Positions 10,493 through 42,230 of a DNA stretch of 64,000 nucleotides are shown here, in pieces. The translations under genes were made by a program, and so were the position numbers. Location: the NCBI GenBank assembly GCA_027923505.1, contig BROI01000008.1, positions 744,001 through 808,000 on the forward strand, in the 5' to 3' direction. This DNA is from Mayamaea pseudoterrestris (Eukaryota). The notes under the pieces are model-generated. The model did no database searches. It saw nothing but the letters and a program-made list of their open reading frames with translations, and was not told where the DNA came from. Numbering within the stretch: the stretch's first letter is position 1; each line of letters opens with the position of its first letter.

Positions 10493-10616
10493 GGTGACAA
10501 ATTTGGAAGGTCGTTTTGTCCGTCCATCTACGGAATGAGCGAAATTTGAGTCTTGGTGCGACAGAATAATCAATGAGAGCTGATGCCTTATCACTCAATT
10601 AATGCGCATAAAGCAT

Positions 10617-21208: not shown

Positions 21209-24200
21209 CAGGGGATGGCAATGTATTAGGTGACAACTTGTCACCAGTCTCAGCCCGCAGATGCCTTCATATCAATTGCCCCTACAGCAAGCCCTGTAGG
21301 TGCCCAAATTACTCCAGAATGGTGCCAACATCATGAGTCAGGCTGCACTACAAGATGCAAAGCTTGGCTGGTGTCTCAGGGGATGGCAATGTATTTGGTG
21401 ACAACTTGTCACCAGTCTCAGCCCGCAGGTGCCATGACATTCAGACACCCCTACAGCAAGCCCTGTAGGTGCCCAAATTACCTCAGAATGGTGCCAACAA
21501 CATTACTCAGGCTGCGCTACAAGTGGGTAGGCTTGGCTGGTCTCTCAGGGGATGGCAATGTATTTGGTGACAACTTGTCACCAGTCTCAGCCAGCAGATG
21601 CCGTGACATTCAAATGCCCCTACAGCAAGCCCTGTAGGTGCCCAAATTACACCAGAATGGTGCCAACATCATTATTCACGCTGCGCTACAAGATGGTAGG
21701 CTTGTCTGGTGTCTCAGGGGATGGCAATGTATTTGGTGACAACTTGTCACCAATCTCAGCCCACAGATGCCGTGACATTCAAACGCCCCTACAGCAAGCC
21801 CTGTAGGTGCCCAAATTACACCAGAATGGTGCCAACATCATTATTCAGGCTGCACTACAAGATGGAAAGCTTGGCCGGTGTCTCAGGGGATGGCAATGTA
21901 TTTGGTGACAACTTGTCACCAGTCTCAGCCCGCAGATGTCATAAATTCAAACGCCCCTACAGCAAGCCCTGTAGGTGCCCAAATTACACCAGAATGGTGA
22001 CAACATCAATTTTCAGGCTGCACTACAAGGTGGAAAGCTTGGCTGGTGTCTCAGGGGATGGCAATGTATTTGGTGACAACTTGTCACCAGTCTCAGCCAG
22101 CAGATGCCATGACATTCAGACGCCCCTACAGCAAGCCCTGTAGGTGCCCAAATTACACCAGAATGGTGCCAACATCACTATTCAGGCTGCACTACGAGAT
22201 GGAAAGCTTGGCTGGTGTCTCAGGGGATGGCAATGTATTTTGTGACAACTTGTCACCAGTCTCAGCCCGCAGATGCCATGACATTCAAACACCCCTACAG
22301 CAAGCCCTGTAGGTGCCCAAATTACACCAGAATGGTGCCAACATCATTATTCAGGCTGCACTACAAGATGGTATGCTTGGCTGGTGTCTCAGGGGATGGC
22401 AATGTATTTGGTGACAACTTGTCACCAGTCTCAGCCAGCAGATGCCATGACATTCAAACACCCCTACAGCAAGCCCTGTAGGTGCCCAAATTACACCAGA
22501 ATGGTGCCAACATCATTATTCAGGCTGCACTACGAGATGGAAAGCTTGGCTGGTTTCTCATGGGATGGCAATGTATTTGGTGCCAACTTGTCACCAGTCT
22601 CAGCCAGCAGATGCTCACGTGACATTCCAACGCCCCTACAGCAAGCCCTGTAGGTGCCCAAATTACACCAGAATGGTGCCAACATCATTATTCAGGCTGC
22701 ACTACGAGATGGAAAGCTTGGCTGGTGTCTCAGGGGATGGCAATGTATTTGGTGACAACTTGTCACCAGTCTCAGCCCGCCAATGCCTTGACATTCAAAC
22801 GCCCCTACAGCAAGCCCTGTAGGTGCCCAAATTACTCCAGAATGGTGCCAACATCATTATTCAGGCTGCACTACAAGATGGAAAGCTTGGCTGGTGTCTC
22901 AGGGGATGGCAATGTATTTGGTGACAACTTGTCACCAGTCTCAGCCCGCAGATGCCATGACATTCAAACACCCCTACAGCAAGCCCTGTAGGTGCCCAAA
23001 TTACACCAGAATGGTGCCAACATCATTATTCAGGCTGCACTACGAGATGGAAAGCTTGGCTGGTGTCTCAGGGGATGGCAATGTATTTGGTGACAACTTG
23101 TCACCAGTCTCAGCCAGCAGATGCTCACGTGACATTCCAACGCCCCTACAGCAAGCCCTGTAGGTGCCCAAATTACACCAGAATGGTGCCAACATCATTA
23201 TTCAGGCTGCACTACAAGATGGAAAGCTTGGATGGTGTCTCACGGGATGGCAATGTATTTGGTGACAACTTGTCACCAGTCTCAGCCCGCAGATGCCATG
23301 ACATTCAAACGCCCCTACAGCAAGCCCTGTAGGTGCCCAAATTACACCAGAATGGTGCCAACATCATTATTCAGGCTGCACTACGAGATGGAAAGCTTGG
23401 CTGGTGTCTCAGGGGATGGCAATGTATTTGGTGACAACTTGTCACCAGTCTCAGCCAGCAGATGCCATGACATTCAAACGCCCCTACAGCAAGCCCTGTA
23501 GGTGCCCAAATTACACCAGAATGGTGCCAACATCATTATTCAGGCTGCGCTACAAGATGGTAGGCTTGGCTGGTGTCTCAGGGGATGGCAATGTATTTGG
23601 TGACAACTTGTCACCAGTCTCAGCCCGCAGATGCCATGACATTCAGACACCCCTACAGCAAGCCCTGTAGGTGCCCAAATTACACCAGAATGGTGCCAAC
23701 ATCATTATCAGGCTGCGCTACAAGATGGTAGGCTTGGCTGGTGTCTCAGGGGATGGCAATGTATTTGGTGACAACTTGTCACCAGTCTCAGCCAGCAGAT
23801 GCCATGACATTCAGATGCCCCTACAGCAAGCCCTGTAGGTGCCCAAATTACAACAGAATGGTGCCAACATCATTATTCAGGCTGCACTACAAGATTGAAT
23901 GCTTGGCTGGTGTCTCAGGGGATGGCAACGTATTTGGTGACAACTTGTCACCAGTCTCAGCCCGCAGATGCCATGAGATTCAGACGCCCCTACAGCAAGC
24001 CATGTATACACCCAAATCACACCAGAATGGTGCCAACATCATTATTCAGGCTGCACTACAAGATGGTATGCTTGGCTGGTGTCTCAGGGGATGGCAATGT
24101 ATTTGGTGACAACTTGTCACCAGTCTCAGCCCGCAGATGCCATGACATTCAAACACCCCTACAGCAAGCCCTGTAGGTGCCCAAATTACACCAGAATGGT

Positions 24201-27200
24201 GCCAACATCATTATTCAGGCTGCACTACAAGATGGAAAGCTTGGCTGGTGTCTCAGGGGATGGCAATGTATTTGGTGACAACTTGTCACCAGTCTCAGCC
24301 CGCAGATGCCATGACATTCAGACGCCCCTACAGCAAGCCCTGCAGGTGCCCAAATTACACCAGAATGGTGCCAATATCATTATTCAGGCTGCGCTACAAG
24401 ATGGAAAGCTTGGCTGGTGTCTCAGGGGATGGCAACGTATTTGGTGACAACTTGTCACCAGTCTCAGCCCGCAGATGCCATGAGATTCAGACGCCCCTAC
24501 AGCAAGCCATGTATACACCCAAATCACACCAGAATGGTGCCAACATCATTATTCAGGCTGCACTACAAGATGGAAAGCTTGGCTGGTGTCTCAGGGGATG
24601 GCAATGTATTTGGTGACAACTTGTCACCAGTCTCAGCCCGCAGATGCCATAAAGTTCAAACGCCCCTACAGCAAGCCCTGTAGGTGCCCTAATTACACCA
24701 GAATGGTGCCAACATCATTATTCAGGATGCGCTACAAGATGGTAGGCTTGTCTGGTGTCTCAGGGGATGGCAATGTATTTGGTGACAACTTGTCACCAGT
24801 CTCAGCCCGCAGATGCCATGACATTCAAACATCCCTACAGCAAGCCCTGTAGGTGCCCAAATTACACCAGAATGGTGCCAACATCATTGTTTAGGCTGCG
24901 CTACAAGATGGTAGGCTTGGCTGGTGTCTCAGGGGATGGCAATGTATTTGGTGACAACTTGTCACCAGTCTCAGCCAGCAGATGCCATGACATTCAGATG
25001 CCCCTACAGCAAGCCCTGTAGGTGCCCAAATTACAACAGAATGGTGCCAACATCATTATTCAGGCTGCGCTACAAGATGGAAAGCTTGGCTGGTGTCTCA
25101 GGGGTGCCGTCTCAGCCAAGATTACACGCAGAAGCCATGTATACACCCAAATCACACCAGAATGGTGCCAACATCATTATTCAGGCTGCACTACAAGATG
25201 GAAAGCTTGGCTGGTGTCTCAGGGGATGGCAATGTATTTGGTGACAACTTGTCACCAGTCTCAGCCCGCAGATGCCATAAAGTTCAAACGCCCCTACAGC
25301 AAGCCCTGTAGGTGCCCTAATTACACCAGAATGGTGCCAACATCAATATTCAGGCTGCACTACGAGATGGAAAGCTTGGCTGGTGTCTCAGGGGATGGCA
25401 ATGTATTTGGTGACAACTTGTCACCAGTCTCAGCCTGCAGATGCTCACGTGACATTCAAACGCCCCTACTGCAAGCCCTATAGGTGCCCAAATTACACCA
25501 GATATGGTGCCAACATCATTATTCAGGCTGCGCTACAAGATGGTAGGCTTGGCTGGTGTCTCAGGGGATGGCAATGTATTTGGTGACAACTTGTCACCAG
25601 TCTCAGCCAGCAGATGCCGTGACATTCAGGCGCCCCTACAGCAAGCCCTGTAGGTGCCCAAATTACACCGGAATGGTGCCAACATCATTATTCAGGCTGC
25701 GCTAGAAGATGGTATGCTTGGCTGGTGTCTCAGGGGTTGTATGGCAATGTATTTGGTGACAACTTGTCACCAGTCTCAGCCCGCAGATGCCATGACAGAC
25801 AAACGCACCTACAGCAAGCCCTGTAGGTGCCCAAATTACACCAGAACGGTGCCAACATCATTATGCAGGCTGCACTACAAGATGGTAGGCTTGGCTGGTG
25901 TCTCAGGGGATGGCAATGTATTTGGTGACAACTTGTCACCAGTCTCAGCCAGCAGATGCCATGACCTTCAAACGCCTCTACAGCAAGCCCTGTAGGTGCC
26001 CAAATTACACCAGAACGGTGCCAACATCATTATTCAGGCTGCACTACAAGATGGTAGGCTTGGCTGGTGTCTCAGGGGGTGGCAATGTATTTGGTGACAA
26101 CTTGTCACCAGTCTCAGCCAGCAGATGCCGTGACCTTCAAACGCCCCTACAGCAAGCCCTGTAGGGGCCCAAATTACACCAGAATGGTGCCAACATCATT
26201 ATTCAGGCTGCGCCACAAGATGGTAGGCTTGGCTGGTGTCTCAGGGGTTGTATGGCAGTGTATTTGGTGACAACTTGTCACCAGTCTCAGCCAGCAGATG
26301 CCATGACATTCAGACGCCCCTACAGCAAGCCCTGTAGGTGCCCAAATTACACCAGAATGGTGCCAACATTTTTGTTTAGGCTGCGCTACAAGATGGTAGG
26401 CTTGGCTGGTGTCTCAGGGGATGGCAATGTATTTGGTGACAACTTGTCACCAGTCTCAGCCAGCAGATGCCATGACATTCAGACACCCCTACAGCAAGCC
26501 CTGTAGCTGCCCAAATTACACCAGAATGGTGCCAACATCATTATTCAGGCTGCACTACAAGATGGAAAGCTTGGCTGGTGTCTCAGGGGATGGCAATGTA
26601 TTTGGTGACAACTTGTCACCAGTCTCAGCCAGCAGATGCCATGACATTCAGACGCCCCTACAGCAAGCCCTGTAGGTGCCCAAATTACACCAGAATGGTG
26701 CCAACATCATTATTCAAGCTGCACTACAAGATGGAAAGCTTGGCTGGTGTCTCTGGTGATGGCAATGTATTTGGTGACAACTTGTCACCAGTCTCAGCCC
26801 GCAGATGCCATGACATTCAAACGCCCCTACAGCAAGCCCTGTAGGTGCCCAAATTACACCAGAATGGTGCCAACATCATTATTCAGGCTGCACTATAAGA
26901 TGGAAAGCTTGGCTGGTGTCTCAGGGGATGGCAATGTATTTGGTGACAACTTGTCACCAGTCTCAGCCAGCAGATGCTCACGTGACATTCAAACGCCCCT
27001 ACAGCAAGCCCTGTAGGTGCCCAAATTACACCAGAATGGTGCCAACATCATTATTCAGGCTGCACTACAAGATGGAAAGCTTGGCTGGTGTCTCAGGGGA
27101 TGGCAATGTATTTGGTGACAACTTGTCACCAGTCTCAGCCCGCAGATGCCATGACATTCAGACGCCCCTACAGCAAGCCCAGTAGGTGCCCAAATTACAC

Positions 27201-30102
27201 CAGAATGGTGCCAACATCATTATTCAGGCTGCACTACAAGATGGAAAGCTTGGCTGGTGTCTCAGTGGATGGCAATGTATTTGGTGACAACTTGTCACCA
27301 GTCTCAGCCGGCAGATGCCATGACATTCAAACGCCCCTACAGCAAGCCCTGTAGGTGCCCAAATTACACCAGAATGGTGCCAACATCATTATTCAGGCTG
27401 CACTACAAGATGGTATGCTTGGCTGGTGTCTCAGGGGATGGCAATGTTTTTGGTGACAACTTGTCACCAGTCTCAGCCTGCAGATGCCATGACATTCAAA
27501 CACCCCTACAGCAAGCCCAGTAGGTGCCCAAATTACACCAGAATGGTGCCAACATCATTATTCAGGCTGCACTACAAGATGGAAAGCTTGGCTGGTGTCT
27601 CAGGGGATGGCAATGTATTTGGTGACAACTTGTCACCAGTCTCAGCCGGCAGATGCCATGACATTCAAACGCCCCTACAGCAAGCCCTGTAGGTGCCCAA
27701 ATTACACCAGAATGGTGCCAACATCATTATTCAGGCTGCACTACAAGATGGTATGCTTGGCTGGTGTCTCAGGGGATGGCAATGTTTTTGGTGACAACTT
27801 GTCACCAGTCTCAGCCTGCAGATGCCATGACATTCAAACACCCCTACAGCAAGCCCAGTAGGTGCCCAAATTACACCAGAATGGTGCCAACATCATTATT
27901 CAGGCTGCACTACAAGATGGAAAGCTTGGCTGGTGTCTCAGTGGATGGCAATGTATTTGGTGACAACTTGTCACCAGTCTCAGCCGGCAGATGCCATGAC
28001 ATTCAAACGCCCCTACAGCAAGCCCTGTAGGTGCCCAAATTACACCAGAATGGTGCCAACATCATTATTCAGGCTGCACTACAAGATGGTAGGCTTGGCT
28101 GGTGTCTCAGTGGATGGCAATGTATTTGGTGACAACTTGTCACCAGTCTCAGCCGGCAGATGCCATGACATTCAAACGCCCCTACAGCAAGCCCTGTAGG
28201 TGCCCAAATTACACCAGAATGGTGCCAACATCATTATTCAGGCTGCACTACAAGATGGTATGCTTGGCTGGTGTCTCAGGGGATGGCAATGTTTTTGGTG
28301 ACAACTTGTCACCAGTCTCAGCCTGCAGATGCCGTGACCTTCAAACGCCCCTACAGCAAGCCCAGTAGGTGCCCAAATTACACCAGAATGGTGCCAACAT
28401 CATTATTCAGGCTGCACTACAAGATGGAAAGCTTGGCTGGTGTCTCAGTGGATGGCAATGTATTTGGTGACAACTTGTCACCAGTCTCAGCCGGCAGATG
28501 CCATGACATTCAAACGCCCCTACAGCAAGCCCTGTAGGTGCCCAAATTACACCAGAATGGTGCCAACATCATTATTCAGGCTGCACTACAAGATGGATAG
28601 CTTGGCTGGTGTCTCAGGGGATGGCAATGTATTTGGTGACAACTTGTCACCAGTCTCAGCCAGCAGATGCCGTGACCTTCAAACGCCCCTACAGCAAGCC
28701 CTGTAGGTGCCCAAATTACACCAGAATGGTGCCAACATCATTGTTTAGGCGGCGCTACAAGATGGTAGGCTTAGCTGGTGTCTCAGGGGATGGCAATGTA
28801 TTTGGTGACAACTTGTCACCAGTCTCAGCCAGCAGATGCCATGACATTTAGACGCCCCTACAGCAAGCCCTGTAGGTGCCCAAATTACACCAGAATGGTG
28901 CCAACATCATTATTCAGGCTGCACTACAAGATGGAAAGCTTGGCTGGTGTCTCAGGGGATGGCAATGTATTTGGTGACAACTTGTCACCGGTCTCAGCCC
29001 ACAGATGCCAGCCCCTACAGCAAGCCCTGTAGGTGCCCAAATTACACCAGAACGGTGCTAACATCATTATTCAGGCTGCACTACAAGATGCCAAGCTTGG
29101 CTGGTGTCTCAGGGGATGGCAATGTTTTTGGTGACAACTTGTCACCAGTCTCAGCCAGCAGATGCCGTGACCTTCAAATGCCCCTACAGCAAGCCCTGTA
29201 GGTGCCCAAATTACACCAGAACGGTGCCAACATCACGATTTAGGCTGCGCTACAAGATGGTAGGCTTGGCTGGTGTCTCAGGGGTTGTATGGCAATGTAT
29301 TTGGGGACAACTTGTCACCAGTCTCAGCCTGCAGATGCCATGACATTCAGATGCGCCTACAGCAAACCCTGTAGGTGCCCAAATTACAACAAAATGGTGC
29401 CAACATCATTATTCAGGCTGCACTACAAGATGGAAAGCTTGGCTGGTGTCTCAGGGGATGGCAATGTATTTGGTGACAACTTGTCACCAGTCTCAGCCAG
29501 CAGATGCCATGACCTTCAAATGCCCCTACAGCAAGCCCTGTAGGTGCCCAAATTACACCAGAACAGTGCCAACATCATTATTCAGGCTGCGCTACAAGAT
29601 GGTAGGTTTGGCTGGTGTCTCAGGGGTTGTATGGCAATGTATTTGGTGACAACTTGTCACCAGTCTCAGCCCACAGATGCCATGACATTCAGATGCACCT
29701 ACAGCAAACCCTGTAGGTGCCCAAAATACACCAAAATGGTGCCAACATCATTATTCAGGCTGCACTACAAGATGGATAGCTTGGCTGGTGTCTCAGGGGA
29801 TGGCAATGTATTTGGTGACAACTTGTCACCAGTCTCAGCCAGCAGATGCCATGACCTTCAAACGCCCCTACAGCAAGCCCTGTATGGGGCCCAAATTACA
29901 CCAGAATGGTGACAACATCATTATTCAGGCTGCACTACAAGATGGTAGGCTTGGCTGGTGTCTCAGGGGATGGCAATGTATTTGGTGACAACTTGTCACC
30001 AGTCTCAGCTAGCAGATGCCATGACATTCAGATGCCCCTACAGCAAGCCCTGTAGGTGCCCAAATTACACCAGAATGGTGCCAACATCATTATTCAGGCT
30101 GC
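21209..30102. repeat. 169-bp tandem satellite, block 2 (about 53 monomers)
   Basis: Same monomer and orientation as block 1; resumes in phase after the CAGGG TSD. Confidence 0.98.
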
Positions 30103-30842
30103 TCCCAAGGCAGTCTCCCAACAAGGTCGGCAAGTCTAACCAAAGGAATGGGAGGCAACCCAATCAACATCGGCATGTGGTCTGCCCATTGTCGGTAGCT
30201 GTTCCCATTCTCCCCCCGCACCACTGATGACATGACTATCGATCACAGTGTACTCATAAGGTATCAATGGTGCCCCACAGCAGGCCCTCGTAGCCGGAAC
30301 AATCATCAGAATGCGTGCCACTTCATTCTTCGGCTGTTCCTACTCGCACGCCTGGCTGCGCCCGGCCAGCTGCCCAAAAGTTGGCAGCGATGTATTTGGT
30401 GCAACTATGGACCAGTCAACTCCCCAGTCCATGACATCAACCACTTCAGCAGGCGACCTGTGAGGAGGATTCGCCACAACCCACACGAACAACAGCTTGC
30501 TGGGGGCAGTCACGCCACACAAACAAACAAGAAGCCGTGTGGCGAGAACCGCGGAAGAAAGGAAAGAGAAAGGAGAACGAGAAGACTCTGGATCTGGTGG
30601 AAAGACCCTGGAGGTTGCTCCTGATAAGGAGGAGCTAGCTAAAGACGAGGAGCGCACAAGCAGCCAGCCCGGAGGATGGCGACTCGGATGCAAACCTTTA
30701 GCTACAGTCTCGTAACCTATAAATCTCAACGATGCAGAAGAGTGTAACGTCTGCTAGTAGATGAGGTCTTGTATGACCCTCAAAGTAGAACGGCTCCCTG
30801 GATGGCCTTGAGCGTGAGGCGCCCAACTTCCTGGGAGCTTTC

Positions 30843-32600
30843 TCAAAGGTAATGCTGCACAGAAGGCGCTGACCATCTTAAACGGAAAGCAATCTCCTGT
30901 ATATCAAGGCCTGCGTTCTACAAAGCAACTGCCGCCATGACGCGATTGGAATGAGCCACTATGCGGGTCACATTTTGGCGCAGGAAATGTTGTGGGTTTG
31001 GGTATGCTCCAACCACCGCTGCTCGCATCACTTTGATGATATCCCGTGACTGTAGATAGTCATAACTCCCAGTGGAAGACGTTCGAAAGACACCCAAAGG
31101 CTCCTTGAATGGTTTGCTGTGAAGGCACCATGCGCGTCCAATGATGGACATACTTGCTGCGATGGGGCAAATGAATGGATGCCCGGACCATTTAAATTTT
31201 CGTATGGTGAAATTGGTTTGGCTCTTGTCATAGCGAAAGCGCAAGTGCAATTCAGCCTGTCATGTGTGATCAGGACGCTGTCAGCCGTGTAAAACATGAA
31301 ATCTAAATCAATGAATGCCAGCGGTTGGTTGGCCCATTCACCGGCATCCCTATTTGCTGGGACCTTGCTGAAGCATCCTCTACGTGCTGTAGTCTGTGCG
31401 TATTCATTTGCTCGCGAGCCAGTGAAAGCCCCAAGGCATGTCCAGTCGAAAACGGTGGTTTGTACGTCAAGATTTACTGTTGCGTTGGTGGCCGTCTCCT
31501 TTTTCAATGTGGCGTATATAGCAGGTATGCAACAGAAAGTAGTATCACTATGCCGTTAAAAGTAGCGCACCTCGGAATCGAACCAAGGATAACCGGCTAT
31601 ATCACCTCTAAACACGCTGCTACTTTTCCGTCTGCTAGTGTACTATATGCTGCATACAAGGCACCATGCACTATGACAAGTAAAGGTATCGCTCTGGTTG
31701 CTGTTTTTCGTGTGCAACCTGCTACTCCCCTAGCTTTGCGCGTCATAGTGCTAACTCGTCTTCCGTTTCAGCTGGCATTTTCGTCTCGCGGGGGAATGTC
31801 ACTTTTCAGTTTTTCCTGCGGCGTTTCGGGCTCGGCGCATCTTTGTGCACTCCCCAGGGTCCGCGACTCCCCATCGTTCGTTCGTGACAAACCCGTGCAA
31901 CCAGTGAATTTTTGCTTTTTCTTCGCTTGATTCGATCGCAACTCGAACCAGCAGCCTCAGTCCAGATCTCTCGATAGGGACGCTACCATAGCAGGTATGC
32001 AACAGAAAGTAGTATCACTATGCCGTTAAAAGTAGCGCACCTCGGAATCGAACCAAGGATAACCGGCTATATCACCTCTAAACACGCTGCTACTTTTCCG
32101 TCTGCTAGTGTACTATATGCTGCATACAAGGCACCATGCACTATGACAAGTAAAGGTATCGCTCTGGTTGCTGTTTTTCGTGTGCAACCTGCTATATAAG
32201 TACTCAAACATCTTGTTGGTGAATGGCTCGCGCTTCTCTCACGCCTTCTGCCACTTGCGCCGACTGGCCAGTATGTCGGCAAGCATTGGATGATATCCCT
32301 CCTTGCTTATATTTTGGATTGGAAATTTCCTGTTGAGGAACAACTCGAGGAGGGAGTGTGCTGCATTTAAGTAGCCCACCAATGTTTTCACCATCAATGG
32401 ATCTTGTTGGGCGCCGGCCTTCCCTTGGAGTTTCTTTTTGTCAATCTCAAGTGATGTTTTACCAGAGGCCACAGCAAACAAGTATCCCGCTAGGATCGCA
32501 ACTTCTTGCCCCGGTGAGACTTCCGCAAAAGACTTGTCTGTGAATCCTGCCTGGAGACTCCATCTTCCAAAATGCGAGGCTCTCTGATCAAACGCGCAAT
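30843..32600 (-). pseudogene. Tyrosine recombinase pseudogene
   Basis: Catalytic motifs TGSRANEY (R), RYDKS (K), AHSNRV (HxxR), FRLRWS (W) and QHYL (Y). In-frame stops at 32239, 30918 and 30843, a frameshift near 31255, and interruption by the TRIM. The 5' limit is approximate. Confidence 0.88.
31519..32194 (-). mobile_element. TRIM (miniature non-autonomous LTR retrotransposon), 676 bp
   Basis: Identical 206-bp LTRs (31519-31724 and 31989-32194) with 8-bp inverted ends TAGCAGGT/ACCTGCTA. PBS TGGTAGCGTCCC (31988-31977), PPT AGGGGAG (31731-31725) and 4-bp TSD TATA. Removing it restores the YR frame FEYLYATLKKE. Confidence 0.93.
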
Positions 32601-33022
32601 CGTTTCTGGCCCGTATGTCGCCTCGCTCGCGCTCCCATTGATCAGGGACAAGATCGTTGAAAGCAGCTCTCGCTCCACTAGGAAGATTTTGCAGGCTGCC
32701 AATGCCTGCGTGTCCTGTGAGATAACGGACGCCCACGACATTGTTGATGGAGTGAATCGAGAGAGTTGGTCGGCTTCCACAAGCGCCGAGGTGTTGTCTG
32801 ACAATACATTGAGAATGTGTTGTCGATCTCGAATGGCTGGTGTGTGGCAGATGGCACACAAAGACAGTACCACGTTTATGACAATGGCCACGAATTCCAA
32901 AATATTGATATGGTATTCATCCGTGACGAGCGGTCGTTGAGAAGGCTTGGTATTGAATTTGCGCATTTTGAATTTGCAGGTAGCCAAGTCCTCGTCATTC
33001 AAGCGCCACATAAAGAGCAAGG

Positions 33023-33335
33023 TTGCAGGATGCGAACGAAAACAGCGAAAATCGGGCAAGTCACACCGAATGTCCGATAGGGTGACACAGCGGCACTCGC
33101 GGCTCACCACAGCCTCACGATCGCGTGATGCGTGGCAGCGACGGCTTCGAAGCGATTCAACAAGTATATTGCTGAAACTAGTGCGATATAGAGTAGAAAC
33201 AAGCAGACTTACTAAGCTTGAAGAGTTAAGAAAGCGATTTATTCGTCTCTCGTATTGTAGCAACTGCAAGCTTGGATTGGCCATCCAAGGACAGCTACAA
33301 GCGAAAGGTGCAACGATTTGATTTACAAGTTACAA
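33023..33335 (+). repeat. 5' LTR of Copia B
   Basis: TTGCAGG...GTTACAA, identical by eye to 39295-39607 and 41434-41746; followed by GATTAACA. Confidence 0.93.
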
Positions 33336-33484
33336 GATTAACACTGTCTTGAGACTCATTGCCTCGGCATAGAGACTTTATCGACGAAGAGTACTATTGA
33401 TTTACGAAGTAACGTGGACGCACGTTGGTTCTTGGCCCGGAAAGTTCCGCAGGTGATAGCAAGAACATTGTCACGACGACAACG

Positions 33485-36400
33485 ATGGCGGAAACTCGCG
33501 CGCAGAAAGACGCGGCGTTTGCGCATGTTTACGAAGAGAACGTAGGCGTTTTCCAAGATCCTCAGTTCAAGGAGTTATTCGACGAACTCGGAGTAGAATC
33601 GCTTACGCAACTGATCGAGATGGAGTACGACGATTTCGCGACGAAGTGGAACGTCACGACGACGACAACGACGACGACTGACGATGGCGACAATGTCACG
33701 CAGGAAACGAGCGAACACTCGCTAACGAAGATGAAACAACGCACGATCACGAACGCGATCGAATGGTATTTGGCGCAAGAGTCGCCGGACATCAAGACAT
33801 GGTCGCAACTGACCACCGAAACGCTGGCGACGTTCGTCACAGCACGAGCGAAGGAACGAGTCCAAGCGCGCAACATTGCGAGCGTGGGCAGCGGAAGCGG
33901 AGCGAAACCTCCAGCGAAGGAAAGCGAAACGGAATCCAAGAAGGACGAATCCAAGGACTCCACGCTAACGAACGAAGGCGACGAGTCGAAGCCTGACTCG
34001 GCCGACAAGGTGCCACCGACGAGTGTGGACGTGGACACGAAGCAGTCACCGACATCCGTACTGGACCTCGGCGACGACGAAGACGACGAGAAGTATTCAG
34101 ACCAATTTACGAAGTCTATCAAGTTCTCGGCGAGGGATTGTAAAGAAATGAAGCTGGATTCCTCGTGGAAACAGTGGATTTCCGAGTTGAAAGTCATCGC
34201 TACATTGCATGACTTCCACGAAGTCTTTGACGACGATTATGACCCGAAGGAAAAGGGACCGAAAGAACAGAAGGCGTATGCAAAGAAGAATGTGTTTGTA
34301 TACAGGATCTTTCTCACGCACTGTCGAACTCCGTCTGCATCACTCGCAGTACAGCAGTTCAAGAAGACGATGGACGGACGCGAAGTCTACCAACGATTGC
34401 GAACGCGATACGAAGAAGGCGCTACTGCTCACATCGAGAAGGAACGCGCGCGAACGGAACTGCAGGGAATGCGGCTGACCGAGAAGTGGTCACGGCCGAC
34501 GATCGAATTTCTCGCACTGTTCTACAAGAAAGTCATCTGGCTGCTCGAAATGGACGCAGAAGCTCTGACAGGTTTACAACGATACGACATGCTACGCGAC
34601 GCTTTCTCCGAGCACACAGGATTCAGCGCATCACTAGCAGGTTTTGACGGAATGATTGCCATCAAGAAACACATGGGGCAACACGACTCGGAAGACAATT
34701 TCGCGCAGTTGTACGCGCACTTAGAAGAGTGCTGCATCAAGTATGACAAGAAACACCCATCGACGACGAAGACTAAGCGCACAATCAATCAAGCGCAGTC
34801 TAGTGGAACGAAAGGAGGCGGCGGCGGCAATGGCGGCGCGACTCCAAGCGGCTTATCGGCGGAACGATTTGCAGCGATCATGAAGAAACCTCACGCGAGC
34901 GTGAAGGATGAAGTCTGGTTGGAGATGAAGTTTGATCAGCGAAAGCAGTTGAAGGACAAGCGTGCGACGGCGCCCAAGACACCCGAAAACGGATGGCGAC
35001 CGCGCAACCAACGAGGCACGGCTACGACGCAGACGCAAGTCAACGCGGCGCATCAAGAGCGTCACGCGACGGAATCTGTAGCGAACGATCACGCAAGCGT
35101 TCCTGGCACGATTAATATTCAGCCCGGCAATAGTGGAATGTCAGTCCAAACGGCTGCACGATCGGTTCTGCAAGCGAACAATGCGAGTACTACAACTCAG
35201 CAAGTGACAGGATCGTTGACGACTGATAACACCGGACGAGGTACATTCAGCTTCAACATGCATCGTCGTATGCGCGTCAATCGCGCACACTACGAGCGGA
35301 TCAACGAAGGCGCGCTCATCGACAGCGGCGCGAACGGAGGCTTATGCGGAGGAGACATGCTCGTCGTTTCGGAAACGAACGCCGAGGTGGATGTGACTGG
35401 TATTGACGATCATATTGTCCCAGCTCTCAAGATTGGCACTGCAGCTGGACTGGCAAAGACCCTTAGTGGCGAAACCATTCTGCTTCTGTGTCACCAGTAT
35501 GCTTTAAAGCGAGACGGACCGACGATTCATTGCCCGAATCAATTGCGCGCAATGGGACATCGCGTCGACGATATTCCGACCATGTTTGGCGGAACGCAAC
35601 GAATTACGACGAACATTGGAGGCTACGTTTTGCCATTGGCAATTCGCGATGGCCTGGTGTACTTGGACGTGACGAAACCCACGTTCGATGATTTGGATAA
35701 GTATCCGACTGTCATCATGACGTCGGACGTGCCGTGGGACTCGACTGTTTACGATGTCGAGCACGCGCACGACGATTTCGACGAACGAGATCATGATTAT
35801 GGATCTTTCGACGAACGATTCGATGATGACGGTATCACGCACCGCAATCGTCACACGCCGACACGCACTGGCGACGAACTTGACGTACTGATCAATCGGT
35901 GCGTGCGACACGCTCAGTTTTCACGCGTTAATTTGCGGAAGCTAAGAAGCAAGGAACCGGACTATAATGCTCTTCGGCCGTACCTCGGATGGGTCCCGAC
36001 TGAGCGCGTTCAACAGACTTTACGTCACACGGAAGCATGGTATCATCTCAGCGCACACCCGCGATTACCATTTCGACACCTCACGAAATCACGATTTCCG
36101 GCCGCGAACGTTCAGCGGTTGCGCGAACTATTCGCCACGGACACGATACACTCTGACACGCCAGCTTTGGATGATGGAATTCTAGGGCATGGGGGAGCTA
36201 CTAAGATGCAGCTCTTTGTTGGACGAGAAAGTTTTTACACGCGCGGCTACCCGATGAAGTCGGAGAGCGAAATGTCAAACGCGTTAGAGGATTTTATCCG
36301 CGAAGTGGGCGCTCCTAACGGACTGCTCAGCGACAATGCCAAGTCGGAGACTGGCAAGGCTGTGAGGGATCTCTGTCGGATGTACAATATTCCTCAAGTG

Positions 36401-39277
36401 ACCACAGAACCGGGTCATCCAGAACAAAATCCATGCGAACGTCACACGTCGCACATTAAGCCAATGATGGAGAACCTCCAACGAGATTCGGGTTCGCCAG
36501 GCCATTGCTGGGTTTTGCTGATTAAATTCGTAATCATGATACTGAACGTCCTCGCGACGAAATCGCTGGGATGGCGCACGCCAACGGAAGTTGCGTTCGG
36601 AAATCTGCCGGATATTTCGCCTTTGTTACATTTCAAGTGGTGGGAACCGGTCACGTTTGAGGCGCAGGGGAGCTTTCCCTCGGCGGTACGATCTGGCAAC
36701 GGCCGATTCGTGGGCATCGCAGAGAATAGCGGTCCGCACATGACTTTTCTCGTTCTGACGGACGACACGCTTCAGGCGATTCCGCGCTCCAACGTGGTCT
36801 CGCGCAGCTACTTGTTACCACGAGAGTTGCCTTCCTTCCCTGAGTCTGGAGGGGAGATTTCTGAAGAAGCTACACGCGCAAGCGAGCGAAATTTTGAAAC
36901 TCCAGATCTCGCGACAGGACGCTACCATAGCACGCATGTGACAGAAAGTAGTCACGACAACTACGAAGGAAACGACGACGAAACGATTCCGATGGCGAAC
37001 CACGCCAACGTACCAGCGAAGTTCTTCAGAAGGGCTGAGCAAGAATCAGGGAATAAATGCCCTCTGTTCTCTCCAAGCGAACTCATCGGACGCACGTTCG
37101 TAAGGGAACACGAAAACGGTCAGAAAATGCGAGCGACTGTATGCGAATATATCGAAGTACGCGATAACGAGCTACTCGAAACGACGAAAGGTTTCCTAAT
37201 CCAAATGGGAGAGGAGCCAGCGAAAGACTTAATAAGTTACAACGAACTGTCGGATTTAATCGAACGACAGATGGACGAAGATATACGAAACGATCCGGCG
37301 ACTCAGTGGGTATTCACGAAGGTAATCGGACACGAGCTTAATTTGAAACCGAACGATCCGACATACAAAGGAAGTTCAAGTAACGTTCTCGTCGAATGGA
37401 CTGACGGAACGACGACGTGGGAGCCTCTCGCGATCATGAAGAAGGACGATCCGATAACGATCGCAGAGTATGGACTCAAGCACGGCTTACTCGACAAGCC
37501 AGGATGGAAGCAGCTGGAGCATTACACTCGGAAGCGAAAGAAGTTTCGACAGATGGTAACAGCGGCGAAACGAAAATCGAAAGCAAACGGCGTACGCTAC
37601 AAATTCGGCGTAAGGTTGCCGCGCAATTATAAAGATGCGAAAGCTCTCGACGAGATCAACGGCAACACGCTGTGGACGGATGCGATTCGAACGGAATTAA
37701 ATCAGATAAATGATTACGACACGTTCGCAGATCAAGGAGTCGGTAAGGTTATGCCGGCGCCGTGGAAACGAATAAACGTGCACATGATATTCGATGTCAA
37801 GCACGATTTGCGACGGAAAGCACGACTCGTTGCAGGAGGACATATGACAGAGCCGCCGAAGGATTCAGTTTACTCGGGCGTTGTGTCATTGCGAAGTCTA
37901 CGAATGGTAGCGATGTTAGCGGAACTCAACGGTCTGGAACTGTGGGCAGCTGACGTCGGCAACGCATACTTGGAAGCGAAAACGAAAGAGAAGGTTTATA
38001 TCGTGGCAGGTCCGGAGTTCGGGGAGCTCGAGGGTCACACGCTCACGATCGTGAAGGCATTATACGGTCTTCGCACGTCAGGCGCACGCTGGCACGAGCA
38101 CTTTGCAGACACGCTCCGCGACATTGGCTTCATGCCGTGTATCGCAGAACCGGACGTGTGGATGCGCGATAAAGGCACGCACTACGAATACGTTTGTGTG
38201 TATGTCGACGATTTAGCGATAGCGATGAAGAATCCGAAGGAACTAACGGATCTTTTAATTGAGAACTACAACTACAAGTTGAAGGGCGTCGGTCCATTGG
38301 CATATCATTTGGGCGCAGACGTTTGGCGAGACGACGACGGCGTACTCTGCTTCGGAGCGAAGAAGTACGTCACAAGACTACTAGCGAACTACAAAGAAAT
38401 GTTCGGCGAGGAACCGCGACCGCAGACAAGTCCACTACGCGACGGCGATCATCCGGAACTCGACGAAACGAAAGAACTTGACGACGACGGAATTGCGAAG
38501 TATCAATCGATAATTGGTGCGTTGCAATGGGCAGTAAGTTTATGTCGATTCGACATTCACTGTGCTGTCATGACTATGGGGAGATTCCGAGCTGCGCCAC
38601 GAGCGGGGCACTTGGAACGGTTGAAGCATATTTGCGGATACTTACGAAGATACCCGGATGGAGCGATTCGATTCAACGTTTCGATTCCAACGGACGAGCG
38701 ATACGCGACAGTTGACAAGATGGATTGGGATTACAGTGTGTACGGCAAGATCTGCGAAGAGCTTCCGTGGAACATGCCCACGCCGCGCGGCAAGGCGGTG
38801 CGAATGTCAACGTTCGAAGATGCGAACCTGTACCACGATTACACGACGGGACGGGCAGCGATGGGCATGCTACACATGTTGAATGGAACAGTCGTTGATT
38901 GGTTTTCGAAACGCCAAGCGACGGTCGAGACGGCGACGTACGGCTCGGAGTTTGTAGCAGCGAGAGTGAGCACGGAGCAGATCATGGATCTTCGCTTCAC
39001 GCTACGCATGTTGGGAGTTCCGCTCGACGGACCTTCATGGATGTTTGGAGACAACAAGTCGGTAACGCAAAGCAGCAACCTACCGCACTCTAGTCTGACG
39101 AAGCGACACAATGCACTGGCATTTCACCGTGTACGCGAAGCGATTGCGGCGGGAATTATTAATTTCAACCACATCATGGGAACGACAAACCCGGCGGATG
39201 TACTTACCAAGTTTCTTCCACGGGCTACGGCAAGCAAGCACTTAAAGAACCTGCTCTTCAAGGAATCTAACTATTAG
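33485..39277 (+). CDS. Copia gag-pol polyprotein (1930 aa): Gag, protease, integrase, chromodomain-like module, RT, RNase H
   Basis: ATG at 33485. LIDSGANGG, ATDT/SDNA/NPCE (DDE), RKARLVAGG, CVYVDD and TNPADVLTK; no stops. Confidence 0.96.
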   Translation: MAETRAQKDAAFAHVYEENVGVFQDPQFKELFDELGVESLTQLIEMEYDDFATKWNVTTTTTTTTDDGDNVTQETSEHSLTKMKQRTITNAIEWYLAQESPDIKTWSQLTTETLATFVTARAKERVQARNIASVGSGSGAKPPAKESETESKKDESKDSTLTNEGDESKPDSADKVPPTSVDVDTKQSPTSVLDLGDDEDDEKYSDQFTKSIKFSARDCKEMKLDSSWKQWISELKVIATLHDFHEVFDDDYDPKEKGPKEQKAYAKKNVFVYRIFLTHCRTPSASLAVQQFKKTMDGREVYQRLRTRYEEGATAHIEKERARTELQGMRLTEKWSRPTIEFLALFYKKVIWLLEMDAEALTGLQRYDMLRDAFSEHTGFSASLAGFDGMIAIKKHMGQHDSEDNFAQLYAHLEECCIKYDKKHPSTTKTKRTINQAQSSGTKGGGGGNGGATPSGLSAERFAAIMKKPHASVKDEVWLEMKFDQRKQLKDKRATAPKTPENGWRPRNQRGTATTQTQVNAAHQERHATESVANDHASVPGTINIQPGNSGMSVQTAARSVLQANNASTTTQQVTGSLTTDNTGRGTFSFNMHRRMRVNRAHYERINEGALIDSGANGGLCGGDMLVVSETNAEVDVTGIDDHIVPALKIGTAAGLAKTLSGETILLLCHQYALKRDGPTIHCPNQLRAMGHRVDDIPTMFGGTQRITTNIGGYVLPLAIRDGLVYLDVTKPTFDDLDKYPTVIMTSDVPWDSTVYDVEHAHDDFDERDHDYGSFDERFDDDGITHRNRHTPTRTGDELDVLINRCVRHAQFSRVNLRKLRSKEPDYNALRPYLGWVPTERVQQTLRHTEAWYHLSAHPRLPFRHLTKSRFPAANVQRLRELFATDTIHSDTPALDDGILGHGGATKMQLFVGRESFYTRGYPMKSESEMSNALEDFIREVGAPNGLLSDNAKSETGKAVRDLCRMYNIPQVTTEPGHPEQNPCERHTSHIKPMMENLQRDSGSPGHCWVLLIKFVIMILNVLATKSLGWRTPTEVAFGNLPDISPLLHFKWWEPVTFEAQGSFPSAVRSGNGRFVGIAENSGPHMTFLVLTDDTLQAIPRSNVVSRSYLLPRELPSFPESGGEISEEATRASERNFETPDLATGRYHSTHVTESSHDNYEGNDDETIPMANHANVPAKFFRRAEQESGNKCPLFSPSELIGRTFVREHENGQKMRATVCEYIEVRDNELLETTKGFLIQMGEEPAKDLISYNELSDLIERQMDEDIRNDPATQWVFTKVIGHELNLKPNDPTYKGSSSNVLVEWTDGTTTWEPLAIMKKDDPITIAEYGLKHGLLDKPGWKQLEHYTRKRKKFRQMVTAAKRKSKANGVRYKFGVRLPRNYKDAKALDEINGNTLWTDAIRTELNQINDYDTFADQGVGKVMPAPWKRINVHMIFDVKHDLRRKARLVAGGHMTEPPKDSVYSGVVSLRSLRMVAMLAELNGLELWAADVGNAYLEAKTKEKVYIVAGPEFGELEGHTLTIVKALYGLRTSGARWHEHFADTLRDIGFMPCIAEPDVWMRDKGTHYEYVCVYVDDLAIAMKNPKELTDLLIENYNYKLKGVGPLAYHLGADVWRDDDGVLCFGAKKYVTRLLANYKEMFGEEPRPQTSPLRDGDHPELDETKELDDDGIAKYQSIIGALQWAVSLCRFDIHCAVMTMGRFRAAPRAGHLERLKHICGYLRRYPDGAIRFNVSIPTDERYATVDKMDWDYSVYGKICEELPWNMPTPRGKAVRMSTFEDANLYHDYTTGRAAMGMLHMLNGTVVDWFSKRQATVETATYGSEFVAARVSTEQIMDLRFTLRMLGVPLDGPSWMFGDNKSVTQSSNLPHSSLTKRHNALAFHRVREAIAAGIINFNHIMGTTNPADVLTKFLPRATASKHLKNLLFKESNY

Positions 39278-39294
39278 GTATGACTTGAGGGGAG

Positions 39295-39607
39295 TTGCAG
39301 GATGCGAACGAAAACAGCGAAAATCGGGCAAGTCACACCGAATGTCCGATAGGGTGACACAGCGGCACTCGCGGCTCACCACAGCCTCACGATCGCGTGA
39401 TGCGTGGCAGCGACGGCTTCGAAGCGATTCAACAAGTATATTGCTGAAACTAGTGCGATATAGAGTAGAAACAAGCAGACTTACTAAGCTTGAAGAGTTA
39501 AGAAAGCGATTTATTCGTCTCTCGTATTGTAGCAACTGCAAGCTTGGATTGGCCATCCAAGGACAGCTACAAGCGAAAGGTGCAACGATTTGATTTACAA
39601 GTTACAA
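39295..39607 (+). repeat. Second LTR of Copia B
   Basis: 313-bp direct repeat preceded by the PPT. Confidence 0.93.
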
Positions 39608-41746
39608 TATGGACTCAAGCACGGCTTACTCGACAAGCCAGGATGGAAGCAGCTGGAGCATTACACTCGGAAGCGAAAGAAGTTTCGACAGATGGTAACA
39701 GCGGCGAAACGAAAATCGAAAGCAAACGGCGTACGCTACAAATTCGGCGTAAGGTTGCCGCGCAATTATAAAGATGCGAAAGCTCTCGACGAGATCAACG
39801 GCAACACGCTGTGGACGGATGCGATTCGAACGGAATTAAATCAGATAAATGATTACGACACGTTCGCAGATCAAGGAGTCGGTAAGGTTATGCCGGCGCC
39901 GTGGAAACGAATAAACGTGCACATGATATTCGATGTCAAGCACGATTTGCGACGGAAAGCACGACTCGTTGCAGGAGGACATATGACAGAGCCGCCGAAG
40001 GATTCAGTTTACTCGGGCGTTGTGTCATTGCGAAGTCTACGAATGGTAGCGATGTTAGCGGAACTCAACGGTCTGGAACTGTGGGCAGCTGACGTCGGCA
40101 ACGCATACTTGGAAGCGAAAACGAAAGAGAAGGTTTATATCGTGGCAGGTCCGGAGTTCGGGGAGCTCGAGGGTCACACGCTCACGATCGTGAAGGCATT
40201 ATACGGTCTTCGCACGTCAGGCGCACGCTGGCACGAGCACTTTGCAGACACGCTCCGCGACATTGGCTTCATGCCGTGTATCGCAGAACCGGACGTGTGG
40301 ATGCGCGATAAAGGCACGCACTACGAATACGTTTGTGTGTATGTCGACGATTTAGCGATAGCGATGAAGAATCCGAAGGAACTAACGGATCTTTTAATTG
40401 AGAACTACAACTACAAGTTGAAGGGCGTCGGTCCATTGGCATATCATTTGGGCGCAGACGTTTGGCGAGACGACGACGGCGTACTCTGCTTCGGAGCGAA
40501 GAAGTACGTCACAAGACTACTAGCGAACTACAAAGAAATGTTCGGCGAGGAACCGCGACCGCAGACAAGTCCACTACGCGACGGCGATCATCCGGAACTC
40601 GACGAAACGAAAGAACTTGACGACGACGGAATTGCGAAGTATCAATCGATAATTGGTGCGTTGCAATGGGCAGTAAGTTTATGTCGATTCGACATTCACT
40701 GTGCTGTCATGACTATGGGGAGATTCCGAGCTGCGCCACGAGCGGGGCACTTGGAACGGTTGAAGCATATTTGCGGATACTTACGAAGATACCCGGATGG
40801 AGCGATTCGATTCAACGTTTCGATTCCAACGGACGAGCGATACGCGACAGTTGACAAGATGGATTGGGATTACAGTGTGTACGGCAAGATCTGCGAAGAG
40901 CTTCCGTGGAACATGCCCACGCCGCGCGGCAAGGCGGTGCGAATGTCAACGTTCGAAGATGCGAACCTGTACCACGATTACACGACGGGACGGGCAGCGA
41001 TGGGCATGCTACACATGTTGAATGGAACAGTCGTTGATTGGTTTTCGAAACGCCAAGCGACGGTCGAGACGGCGACGTACGGCTCGGAGTTTGTAGCAGC
41101 GAGAGTGAGCACGGAGCAGATCATGGATCTTCGCTTCACGCTACGCATGTTGGGAGTTCCGCTCGACGGACCTTCATGGATGTTTGGAGACAACAAGTCG
41201 GTAACGCAAAGCAGCAACCTACCGCACTCTAGTCTGACGAAGCGACACAATGCACTGGCATTTCACCGTGTACGCGAAGCGATTGCGGCGGGAATTATTA
41301 ATTTCAACCACATCATGGGAACGACAAACCCGGCGGATGTACTTACCAAGTTTCTTCCACGGGCTACGGCAAGCAAGCACTTAAAGAACCTGCTCTTCAA
41401 GGAATCTAACTATTAGGTATGACTTGAGGGGAGTTGCAGGATGCGAACGAAAACAGCGAAAATCGGGCAAGTCACACCGAATGTCCGATAGGGTGACACA
41501 GCGGCACTCGCGGCTCACCACAGCCTCACGATCGCGTGATGCGTGGCAGCGACGGCTTCGAAGCGATTCAACAAGTATATTGCTGAAACTAGTGCGATAT
41601 AGAGTAGAAACAAGCAGACTTACTAAGCTTGAAGAGTTAAGAAAGCGATTTATTCGTCTCTCGTATTGTAGCAACTGCAAGCTTGGATTGGCCATCCAAG
41701 GACAGCTACAAGCGAAAGGTGCAACGATTTGATTTACAAGTTACAA
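39608..41746 (+). mobile_element. Second, 5'-truncated copy of Copia B (RT, RNase H and third LTR 41434-41746)
   Basis: Exact copy of 37469-39607 at offset 2139, starting immediately after the second LTR. Confidence 0.93.
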
Positions 41747-42230
41747 CACCAGTCTCAGCCCGCAGATGCCGTGACACTCAAACGCATCTACAGCAGATGG
41801 CCCACAAAGTCGGTACCCAAATTATGACCAGAATGGATGCCAAAATATTATATGTATTCATCCGCTGCGCTACAAGGTGGTAGGCTTGGTTGAGCGTTTG
41901 AATCTCAGGGATGGCCAAGTCCTCTTCACCAGCCACATAAAGCAGCAAGGTGATTCATCCCCCCAAGACTCTGGCATCACTCCGCTGGAGTGGCTCAATT
42001 TGCCCACGAAGGGGCCAAACATTGCTACTTGCGGCTGCGCAAAAATTGACAAGATGCGGAGGCTTTGGCTGGTGTGAATTGTGGCAATGAATTGCAGGTG
42101 ACAACTTGTCACCAGTCTCAGCGCAAAGATGCCATGACATTCAAGCGCCACAGCAAGCCCTGTAGAGATTACACCAGAGTGGTGGCATCATCGCAAGTTA
42201 TTCGGGCTGCGCAACCATGAGGCCAATTGG
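41747..42230. other. Mosaic of satellite and YR-element RNase H sequence, probable chimeric consensus
   Basis: Short words alternately match the satellite monomer and 32845-33022 (e.g. CCAAAATATT, TATTCATCCG, GCCAAGTCCTC, GCCACATAAAG). Confidence 0.7.

Follow-up and report, generated by a model that had tools for sequence, protein, structure and literature searches.

A 64-kb stretch of DNA from Mayamaea pseudoterrestris (contig BROI01000008.1, positions 744,001 to 808,000; hereafter the window, from whose first base all coordinates are counted) contains a complete terminal-repeat retrotransposon in miniature (TRIM), 676 bp long, on the (-) strand at 31519-32194. Its two long terminal repeats (LTRs) are identical, and each appears to hold an 83-nt decayed copy of a tRNA with a long variable arm. 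Within this copy an A-box-like motif and a B box, followed by a run of four T (T4), have what is, to judge by the motifs, the layout of an RNA polymerase III (Pol III) unit. The element resembles the Helenus TRIMs, whose LTRs contain tRNA-like sequence with conserved boxes A and B and whose fungal members depend on Copia (Kojima 2024, PMC10886601). What the sequence itself shows is the anatomy of the TRIM, the tRNA-type motifs and their improbability by chance, the sequence links to a neighbouring Ty1/copia element, and the occurrence of the TRIM at more than one insertion site.

Structure and Copies of the TRIM

The element contains a direct repeat of 207 nt (100% identity, spacing 470). The LTR proper takes up 206 nt of this, the 207th shared base being the first T of the primer binding site (PBS) in one copy and the first T of the flanking TATA in the other. 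The start of the LTR was set by homology to the junction of the polypurine tract (PPT) and the LTR in the copia element, where GGGGAG is followed by T. The PBS 11-mer TGGTAGCGTCC (31978-31988) stands directly behind the 5′ LTR, and it looks like an ordinary site for the 3′-CCA end of a tRNA. Its start, TGGTAGC, has the form that would suit a tRNA whose acceptor end is A1:U72, e.g., the eukaryotic initiator tRNA. Since the target reads TATATA, the size of the target-site duplication is ambiguous at 4-6 bp, and is 4 bp if the LTR ends are symmetric. The 263-nt internal region is without coding capacity, and no open reading frame (ORF) of at least 80 aa lies wholly inside the TRIM on its sense strand. 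TTTT is the only run of four or more T on this strand, where it occurs once in each LTR; runs of four or more A number nine. An initial annotation of this DNA had called the element a TRIM, and LTRs, PBS, PPT and TATA duplication are all present in the sequence. Short LTRs, a non-coding interior, a total length of less than about 1 kb, the PBS, the PPT, the duplication and the existence of several copies place the element among the TRIMs.

There is no second copy of the TRIM elsewhere in the window, and the element was found in eight sequencing runs from two studies, none of them listed as RNA, which has no bearing on expression. The 470-nt unit of LTR and internal region was assembled with 0 differences in four of these runs (X1, X3, X4, and X5), which cover both studies. 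X1, X3, and X4 each gave a cyclic contig of 500 nt (470 + 30), with depths of 38.8, 15.6, and 17.2, respectively, and flanks of about 2-5; in X1 the exact flanks had a depth of 3.0-3.3 vs 38.8 for the unit. X5, a run whose kind (RNA or DNA) is unspecified, gave a 453-nt contig with a joint that “goes back 470” and a depth of 871 vs flanks of about 2-5, a figure that is not readable as expression or copy number. Contig depth is in all these cases a rough guide and not a copy number. The cyclic contigs and the joint in X5 were considered as circles or tandem arrays, an explanation that was rejected because both are the outcome that a de Bruijn graph gives for an LTR-internal-LTR arrangement. In X3 the LTR start is joined to a 169-bp satellite and represents a different insertion site, and X1 contains one diverged LTR piece, with 14 differences in 128 nt, that spans the module described below. 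The LTRs are identical and there is more than one insertion site; this is therefore a young, mobile, multi-copy TRIM family.

Pattern searches for relatives gave 0 matches in metagenome contigs with either a PBS-anchored or a PPT/LTR-start pattern, 0 matches in genome contigs with an LTR-end/PBS pattern, and 0 matches in viral contigs with a module pattern. Separately, X5 differs from the window at the A-rich stretch AAAAAGCAAAAA of the TRIM internal region (31909-31920), which is replaced by far longer A runs; the contig breaks there, and on the (+) strand its loose ends carry 11 T and at least 23 T, respectively. An A tract of variable length inside the element may account for this, and the tract could be what is left of a retroposed piece.

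A tRNA-Derived Unit in Each LTR

The initial annotation had described a 56-nt module on the (-) strand of both LTRs (31618..31563 and 32088..32033), reading AGCGTGT-N24-CTTGG TTCGATT CCGAG-GTGCGCT-A and then CTTTT, and this string is exact. It includes the B box as the exact 11-mer GGTTCGATTCC within a 5-bp T arm, in which a G-U pair is flanked on either side by two Watson-Crick pairs. The acceptor-like stem AGCGTGT/GTGCGCT is made up of four Watson-Crick pairs followed by three G-U pairs, and a discriminator A stands before CTTTT in both LTRs. A competing 9-bp hairpin, AAAAGUAGC/GCUACUUUU, had been pointed out as well; it is real and belongs to the minimum-free-energy (MFE) fold.

ARAGORN was run at its default thresholds and with thresholds lowered to 95% (-ps). 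The relaxed run draws an 83-nt cloverleaf in each LTR, at c[31562,31644] and c[32032,32114], and these are its only matches in the 64 kb. The 56-nt module is the 3′ two thirds of this larger unit. The acceptor stem of the unit is AGTACAC/GTGCGCT, with five Watson-Crick pairs, one G-U pair and one mismatch; its 5′ strand lies 26 nt upstream of the one first noted, which serves as the anticodon stem in the ARAGORN cloverleaf. The unit also has T8 and A9, a D arm bearing TAGCAGACGG, a long variable arm of 4 bp, the T arm and the discriminator A, and its anticodon arm is poor, with an 8-nt loop and a 4-nt “anticodon.” Two earlier statements are affected by this. The absence of full D and anticodon arms does not hold, as the relaxed cloverleaf has a D arm and a weak anticodon arm, and the picture of a 56-nt minihelix similar to mascRNA is not supported, the unit being an 83-nt decayed cloverleaf with no mascRNA or tRNA match in Rfam and a predicted fold that favours the other hairpin. 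The A-box-like motif lies upstream of the B box, 53 nt apart from it. Set against the Helenus form TRGCY...YGG, TAGCAGACGG contains TRGC and CGG, with A at the Y position. The unit appears to keep what Pol III needs, and it is the D and anticodon stems that have decayed.

How readily could such a unit turn up by chance? The exact 11-mer GGTTCGATTCC occurs in the window at just the two LTR sites. When one mismatch is allowed, the B box has 8 matches in the window vs 0.79 expected, so that near-matches are commoner than in shuffles. As a null model, relaxed ARAGORN was applied to 1500 Markov-1 random windows of 64 kb. GGTTCGANTCC was present in 0/107 of the random matches, and its combination with an A box or with TTTT behind the unit was likewise absent. 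Relaxed cloverleaves that contain the exact B box are therefore expected by chance less often than about once per 1500 random windows.

In Rfam, searched at E up to 10 with 1101 nt and with 96 nt, the unit matches none of the tRNA, 5S, hammerhead and mascRNA families. The best Rfam match at the module is sno_ncR3, which has 16.4 bits vs a gathering score of 88 and was taken as noise. The predicted fold of 86 nt has a z of -0.83, and 38 of 200 shuffles were equally good. Neither default ARAGORN nor Rfam points to a functional tRNA gene, and nor do the stability of the cloverleaf and its anticodon loop, measured against the 7 nt of a functional gene. The unit is a promoter-type relic and not a tRNA gene. 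It appears to descend from a tRNA or from a tRNA-derived short interspersed nuclear element (SINE), with the promoter-type motifs, the T arm and the acceptor retained. Its relation to tRNA, as far as sequence can tell, is real and stronger than had been supposed.

The 3′ end of the module, with CCA added, had been said to pair over 9 nt with the element's own PBS, and this pairing is found as a contiguous stretch of 8 Watson-Crick pairs and 1 G-U pair. Over the encoded 3′-terminal 11 nt of the unit, 9/11 positions are identical to the PBS complement, or 11/13 with CCA plus one G-U, and the mismatch falls at PBS position 10. The complementary stretch takes up LTR positions 153-163, and the LTR has no other site of this kind; equal complementarity to the PBS is found at just 5 of 126,646 other window positions. 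The duplex of the unit 3′ end with the PBS is predicted at -22.3 kcal/mol vs -24.6 kcal/mol for a perfect 12-mer.

Links to a Neighbouring Ty1/copia Element

The TRIM is adjoined by a diatom-type Ty1/copia element with an ORF of 1954 aa, in which RVT_2 is matched at 4.9e-25 and rve under its cutoff. The protein-atlas clusters nearest to its reverse transcriptase (RT) are commonest in Bacillariophyta. Its database relatives number 2213, most of them on metagenome contigs of 6-7 kb, and the best non-self relative has 78% identity.

Two sequence links connect the elements. The PPT and LTR start of the two read AGGGGAGTAGCAGGTTGCACACGAAAAACAGC vs AGGGGAGTTGCAGGATGCGAACG-AAAACAGC, with 27/32 positions identical at homologous places. 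GGGGAGT stands ahead of the LTR in the TRIM, in the copia element of the window and in 6/6 related copia loci (taken from contaminated records of metagenome-assembled genomes, MAGs), and the 25 nt after it are common only to the TRIM and the copia element of the window. Within the copia ORF there is also an antisense match to the TRIM (46/53 identical, E 9e-10) that covers the final 25 nt of its LTR, then the PBS and 16 nt beyond it. It lies in frame inside the variable linker between integrase and RT, and the copia RNA holds an exact complement of the TRIM PBS. The predicted duplex of TRIM and copia RNA reaches -76.3 kcal/mol vs a mean of -21.4 and a best value of -34.7 for 218 other copia 52-mers. 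When the copia linker was aligned with those of 12 relatives, the region proved too variable to tell insertion into copia from copying out of copia.

Relaxed ARAGORN finds no tRNA-like unit in the copia LTRs of the window and none in 6/6 LTR regions of the related loci. The unit was therefore acquired by the TRIM, and its restriction to the TRIM fits the published origin, in which a tRNA-derived element was inserted into a TRIM LTR (PMC10886601).

The two elements part company at the PBS. The copia LTR is followed by GATTAACAC..., without a TGG site. A motif of the form (C)AGATTA.CAG is present after the LTR in the copia element of the window and in 4/6 related loci, and a fifth locus (L013) has a 1-nt variant. 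The complement of this motif reads like an anticodon stem-loop (CAAGA, loop CUGUUAA, UCU), the loop being CUGUUAA in three loci and CUGAUAA and CUGGUAA in two. Primer sites that use an internal part of a tRNA are known for Copia and Ty5 (PMC10886601), and the motif suggests that this copia lineage is primed by an internal tRNA fragment whose anticodon varies between elements. With its TGG-type PBS, the TRIM therefore differs in type of primer from the lineage that it otherwise resembles.

Some features of the copia elements are recorded here in their own right. The three copia LTRs of the window are identical and the layout is LTR, full internal region, LTR, 3′ part of the internal region, LTR, with the final ~1.8 kb of the internal region repeated straight after the middle LTR (37469... 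= 39608...). The flanks, a coding repeat on the left and satellite on the right, have no matching duplication. Twenty-five contigs filed under bacterial MAGs (L001-L025) encode diatom-type Ty1/copia polyproteins with 37-65% identity to that of the window; 13 of them are in one Sphingobacteriaceae bin, and they reflect eukaryotic contamination of the bins. An 18-nt match to the unique 5′ region of the LTR (U5) at 60930-60947 lies inside a Nop14-like host gene, has no extension and was taken as chance.

Proposed Transcription and Mobilization of the TRIM

In the TRIM, a tRNA relic is present in both LTRs, but what would be its role? Helenus, Cassandra and Ajax are grouped as TRIMp3, a name for TRIMs whose Pol III promoter comes from the gene of a small RNA (PMC10886601). 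We put at about even chances the reading that the present element is a TRIM of the Helenus/TRIMp3 kind, in which the unit would be an internal Pol III promoter with a leaky T4, the same unit would form the R (repeat) region, and a diatom-type copia element would mobilize the TRIM in trans. Pol III use, read-through, the boundaries of R, the partner and the primer are parts of this reading that we infer. With TFIIIC, Pol III would begin transcription in the 5′ LTR, at LTR position 81 or close to it, and a fraction of the transcripts would pass the weak T4. The read-through RNA would span U5, the PBS, the internal region and the PPT and would be terminated by the second copy of this T4, in the 3′ LTR, so that the tRNA-like unit could act as the R repeat for strand transfer. 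A member of the neighbouring Ty1/copia family would then reverse-transcribe the TRIM RNA and integrate it in trans. The Pol III promoter suggested by the initial annotation is strengthened here by the layout of A box, B box and T4 and by the Helenus precedent, while the use of Pol III itself keeps the standing of a proposal.

A number of observations weigh against this reading. The T4 lies right behind the unit and would stop most Pol III transcripts before the PBS, and a full-length RNA therefore needs read-through. One T4 run per 470 nt agrees with base composition (0.73 expected), and its absence elsewhere is not significant. The A-box-like motif is without the Y of TRGCY. Default ARAGORN reports 0 tRNAs, Rfam misses the tRNA, and relaxed ARAGORN gave 107 matches in the 1500 random windows, i.e., a false-positive rate of 0.071 per window for the call alone. 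The ARAGORN cloverleaf is predicted at +2.5 kcal/mol vs -16.7 kcal/mol for the MFE fold, which uses the competing 9-bp hairpin and not the cloverleaf. The 3′ end of the copia LTR and the copia PBS type differ from those of the TRIM, and this copia element may not be the partner. Finally, the search turned up no further family member whose sequence could be read, which bears on the conservation of the boxes and on covariation.

Several of these points would suit a passenger. A tRNA or SINE fragment may have landed in the LTR of a TRIM transcribed by Pol II and have no present function, an explanation that we find distinctly less probable than Pol III use but that carries more weight than any other alternative. 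Its cloverleaf is decayed and unstable and is called as a tRNA by neither default ARAGORN nor Rfam, the T runs are as many as composition predicts, and the readable copies are all identical, hence no selection on the boxes is visible. Decay has been selective, however: the parts that are intact are exactly the Pol III signals (the 11-nt B box, TRGC..A..GG and T4), and it is the stems between them that are lost. The same pattern of signals kept and stems lost is that of SINEs and of Helenus (PMC10886601). A resemblance due to chance, with no tRNA ancestry at all, is the least probable of the explanations considered. It could appeal to the 0.071 relaxed ARAGORN matches per random window, to the near-B-box count of 8 vs 0.79 and to the fold z of -0.83, but the exact B box is in 0/107 random matches, and an A box, long-arm spacing, a discriminator and an adjacent T4 all coincide with it.

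The near-complementarity to the PBS gives rise to another proposal, that the TRIM supplies its own primer. The LTR unit would be transcribed, trimmed at its 3′ end, tailed with CCA and annealed to the TRIM's own PBS, where it would prime the minus strand; this could free the TRIM from the anticodon-arm type of primer of the copia lineage. We regard both the proposal and this benefit as improbable. The match of 9/11 encoded positions (11/13 with CCA), equalled at 5 of 126,646 other window positions, the predicted duplex of -22.3 vs -24.6 kcal/mol for the perfect 12-mer, and a TRIM PBS that differs from the (C)AGATTA.CAG motif of the copia lineage all argue for it. So does the preservation of the unit, which is best in the acceptor and T arm, the part that end-processing enzymes recognize. 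However, the match is imperfect, with its mismatch at PBS position 10, and could just mean that the unit descends from a primer-like tRNA; the PBS starts with TGGTAGC, presumably an ordinary tRNA form, and a host tRNA may match it perfectly. Furthermore, the predicted fold hides the 3′ end of the unit in a hairpin with the trailer, and Kojima found no such complementarity in Helenus (PMC10886601). In a wider form of the proposal, to which we attach a similarly low probability, the TRIM would bring its own tRNA-mimic primer (12/13 positions pair, one of them G-U) together with a U5-PBS leader, 87% complementary over 53 nt to the genomic RNA of the helper, that would draw the TRIM RNA into helper particles. 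To our knowledge, a tRNA-mimic primer encoded by the retroelement that uses it has not been described.

It is also conceivable, at a probability lower still, that the unit is a processing signal. RNase P and RNase Z would cut it from a longer Pol II or read-through RNA, as in MALAT1/mascRNA, and thereby set the RNA ends and R. The acceptor-like stem, T arm and discriminator in both LTRs could serve such a purpose, but Rfam has no match to mascRNA-type or tRNA families and the cloverleaf is unstable.

Comparison with Known Systems

Returning to the reading as a TRIM of the Helenus/TRIMp3 kind, the present element shares with Helenus a length below 1 kb, a PBS, a PPT and a short duplication. In both, the 3′ part of the LTR carries a sense-oriented tRNA relic that is no functional tRNA, with a box B containing GGTTC and a T run after it; box A is partial in the present element. 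Two Helenus LTR consensus sequences among those in the supplement also have the tRNA-like part in the 3′ portion of the LTR with TTTT soon after (PMC10886601 supplement). As for the fungal Helenus elements, a Copia-type partner would be likely, and similarity to Copia lies outside the bulk of the LTR. The present element is unlike Helenus in that its A-box-like motif is without the Y of TRGCY, its PBS is of another type than that of the copia lineage, its similarity to the copia interior is antisense and within an ORF, and the 3′ end of its unit is nearly complementary to the PBS, a relation that Kojima sought between the tRNA-like sequence and the PBS of Helenus and did not find (PMC10886601). 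It also differs in its host, which looks like a diatom, whereas Helenus is known from fungi, animals and Selaginella (PMC10886601). Pol III transcription has been proposed, not shown, for Helenus itself (PMC10886601).

In the searchable text of the Helenus supplement, diatom, Phaeodactylum and Stramenopil do not occur as terms, and neither the present PBS nor the present T arm is found (PMC10886601). Literature searches found no follow-up of Helenus in stramenopiles and only unrelated papers for the PBS string; for diatom TRIMs they found just a count of “putative TRIM/LARD” elements (LARD, large retrotransposon derivative) in Phaeodactylum, in the portion of that source available (PMC5859163). 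The element thus appears to be of a kind already known (Helenus/TRIMp3) and not of a new class, with the host group being new; the similarity of the LTR to tRNA, judged for Helenus by Censor against Repbase, was assessed here by substitute tests (ARAGORN and Rfam).

Cassandra and Ajax likewise contain the relic of a small-RNA gene with a Pol III promoter and terminator in their LTRs, as stated for Cassandra LTRs in the accessible part of one source (PMC7215508) and for the group by Kojima (PMC10886601). Their relics are derived from 5S, for which the present TRIM has no Rfam match, and Cassandra is a plant lineage with another PBS. In retrozymes an RNA motif is also found in both LTRs of a small non-coding element, in this case a hammerhead, as far as described in the excerpt available (PMC5680766). 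Unlike these, the present TRIM has no hammerhead match in Rfam and no sign of circular RNA.

The unit differs from mascRNA in its 83 nt with the relic of a D arm, which do not make a short mimic, and in the lack of an Rfam match. Like mascRNA and related tRNA-like elements, it has a tRNA-like acceptor and T-arm region that may be a substrate for end processing and CCA addition. Self-priming elements of the Tf1 type offer a parallel of another sort, since here too part of the element's own LTR (positions 153-163 in the TRIM) is complementary to its own PBS. In Tf1, however, it is the first bases of the transcript that are complementary to a PBS without likeness to a tRNA site, whereas the present PBS begins with TGG as tRNA sites do.

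Genomic Surroundings

Around the TRIM lies a degenerate coding repeat, into which it is nested, with (-) strand ORFs at 30918-31516 and 32239-33329; a Pfam search at E up to 0.01 gave no match for them. Atlas clusters nearest to a 162-aa piece of this flanking repeat contain NDC10_II, DUF3435, DUF3504 and Phage_integrase in some of their members. Such families occur in Crypton-type tyrosine-recombinase elements, to which the repeat may, as a lead only, be related. Diverged copies of the flanking coding repeat occur in the sequencing runs.

The window is rich in repeats. Arrays of a 169-bp satellite lie at about 10590-14660, 21130-30230 and 41750-43000+; they hold more than 100 copies, many of them 92-97% alike, and are interrupted by retroelements. 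The 122-aa “ORFs” over the satellite are unit repeats in an open frame and no evidence of a gene. Near the arrays, 2003-7063 and 16477-20301 on the (-) strand contain open frames of 1686 and 1274 aa. Pfam, searched at E up to 0.001, assigns them to no family, and they may be further unclassified mobile elements.

Host genes occupy 48-62 kb and include a helicase, an HMG box gene and a Nop14-like gene. The last is split over 58210-59718 and 59908-61413 on the (+) strand (profile positions 8-357 and 429-861), likely by an intron or a frame change, and its first frame has a weak Tudor_5 match under the cutoff. The coordinates of the TRIM and of the copia features are collected in Table 1.

Table 1. 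Positions of the TRIM, its tRNA-derived unit and the associated copia features in the window.
Feature	Position	Strand	Description
Whole TRIM	31519..32194	(-)	LTR + PBS + 263-nt non-coding internal region + PPT + LTR; flanking duplication extra
5′ LTR	31989..32194	(-)	206 nt, TAGCAGG...CCTGCTA, 7-nt terminal inverted repeat
3′ LTR	31519..31724	(-)	Same sequence as 5′ LTR
PBS TGGTAGCGTCCC	31977..31988	(-)	Abuts 5′ LTR end
PPT AGGGGAG	31725..31731	(-)	Abuts 3′ LTR start
Target-site duplication TATA, upstream copy	32195..32198	(-)	
Target-site duplication TATA, downstream copy	31515..31518	(-)	
Putative 83-nt degenerate tRNA-derived unit, 5′ LTR	32032..32114	(-)	LTR positions 81-163; ARAGORN -ps
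Putative 83-nt degenerate tRNA-derived unit, 3′ LTR	31562..31644	(-)	ARAGORN -ps
A-box-like TAGCAGACGG	32098..32107 (5′ LTR), 31628-31637 (3′ LTR)	(-)	Unit positions 8-17
B box GGTTCGATTCC in T arm	32044..32054 (5′ LTR), 31574-31584 (3′ LTR)	(-)	Unit positions 61-71
TTTT run	32028..32031 (5′ LTR), 31558-31561 (3′ LTR)	(-)	One base past discriminator
Ty1/copia element, diatom type	33023..41746	(+)	LTRs 33023-33335, 39295-39607, 41434-41746; ORF 33413-39277; candidate mobilizing family
Antisense match to TRIM in copia ORF	36901..36952	Copia coding (+), match (-)	46/53 identical, E 9e-10
Post-LTR motif sites	33336-33352; L014, L017, L013, L019, L012		(C)AGATTA.CAG type

Significance

If the reading as a Pol III-dependent TRIM is true, the Helenus/TRIMp3 design arose once more in the stramenopiles, which would be the fourth group of eukaryotes to have it. 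Such a recurrence would back a repeated solution, in which a tRNA relic provides a non-coding LTR parasite with a Pol III promoter, over an oddity of one lineage. LTRs of this sort inflate counts of tRNA pseudogenes. The choice of primer and helper is an open question for TRIMs generally (PMC10886601), and the near-complementarity of the unit to the PBS, together with the antisense match in the candidate helper, makes this family suitable for its study. In diatom genomes, such LTRs would put sites for Pol III and TFIIIC into repeat-rich regions flanked by satellite.

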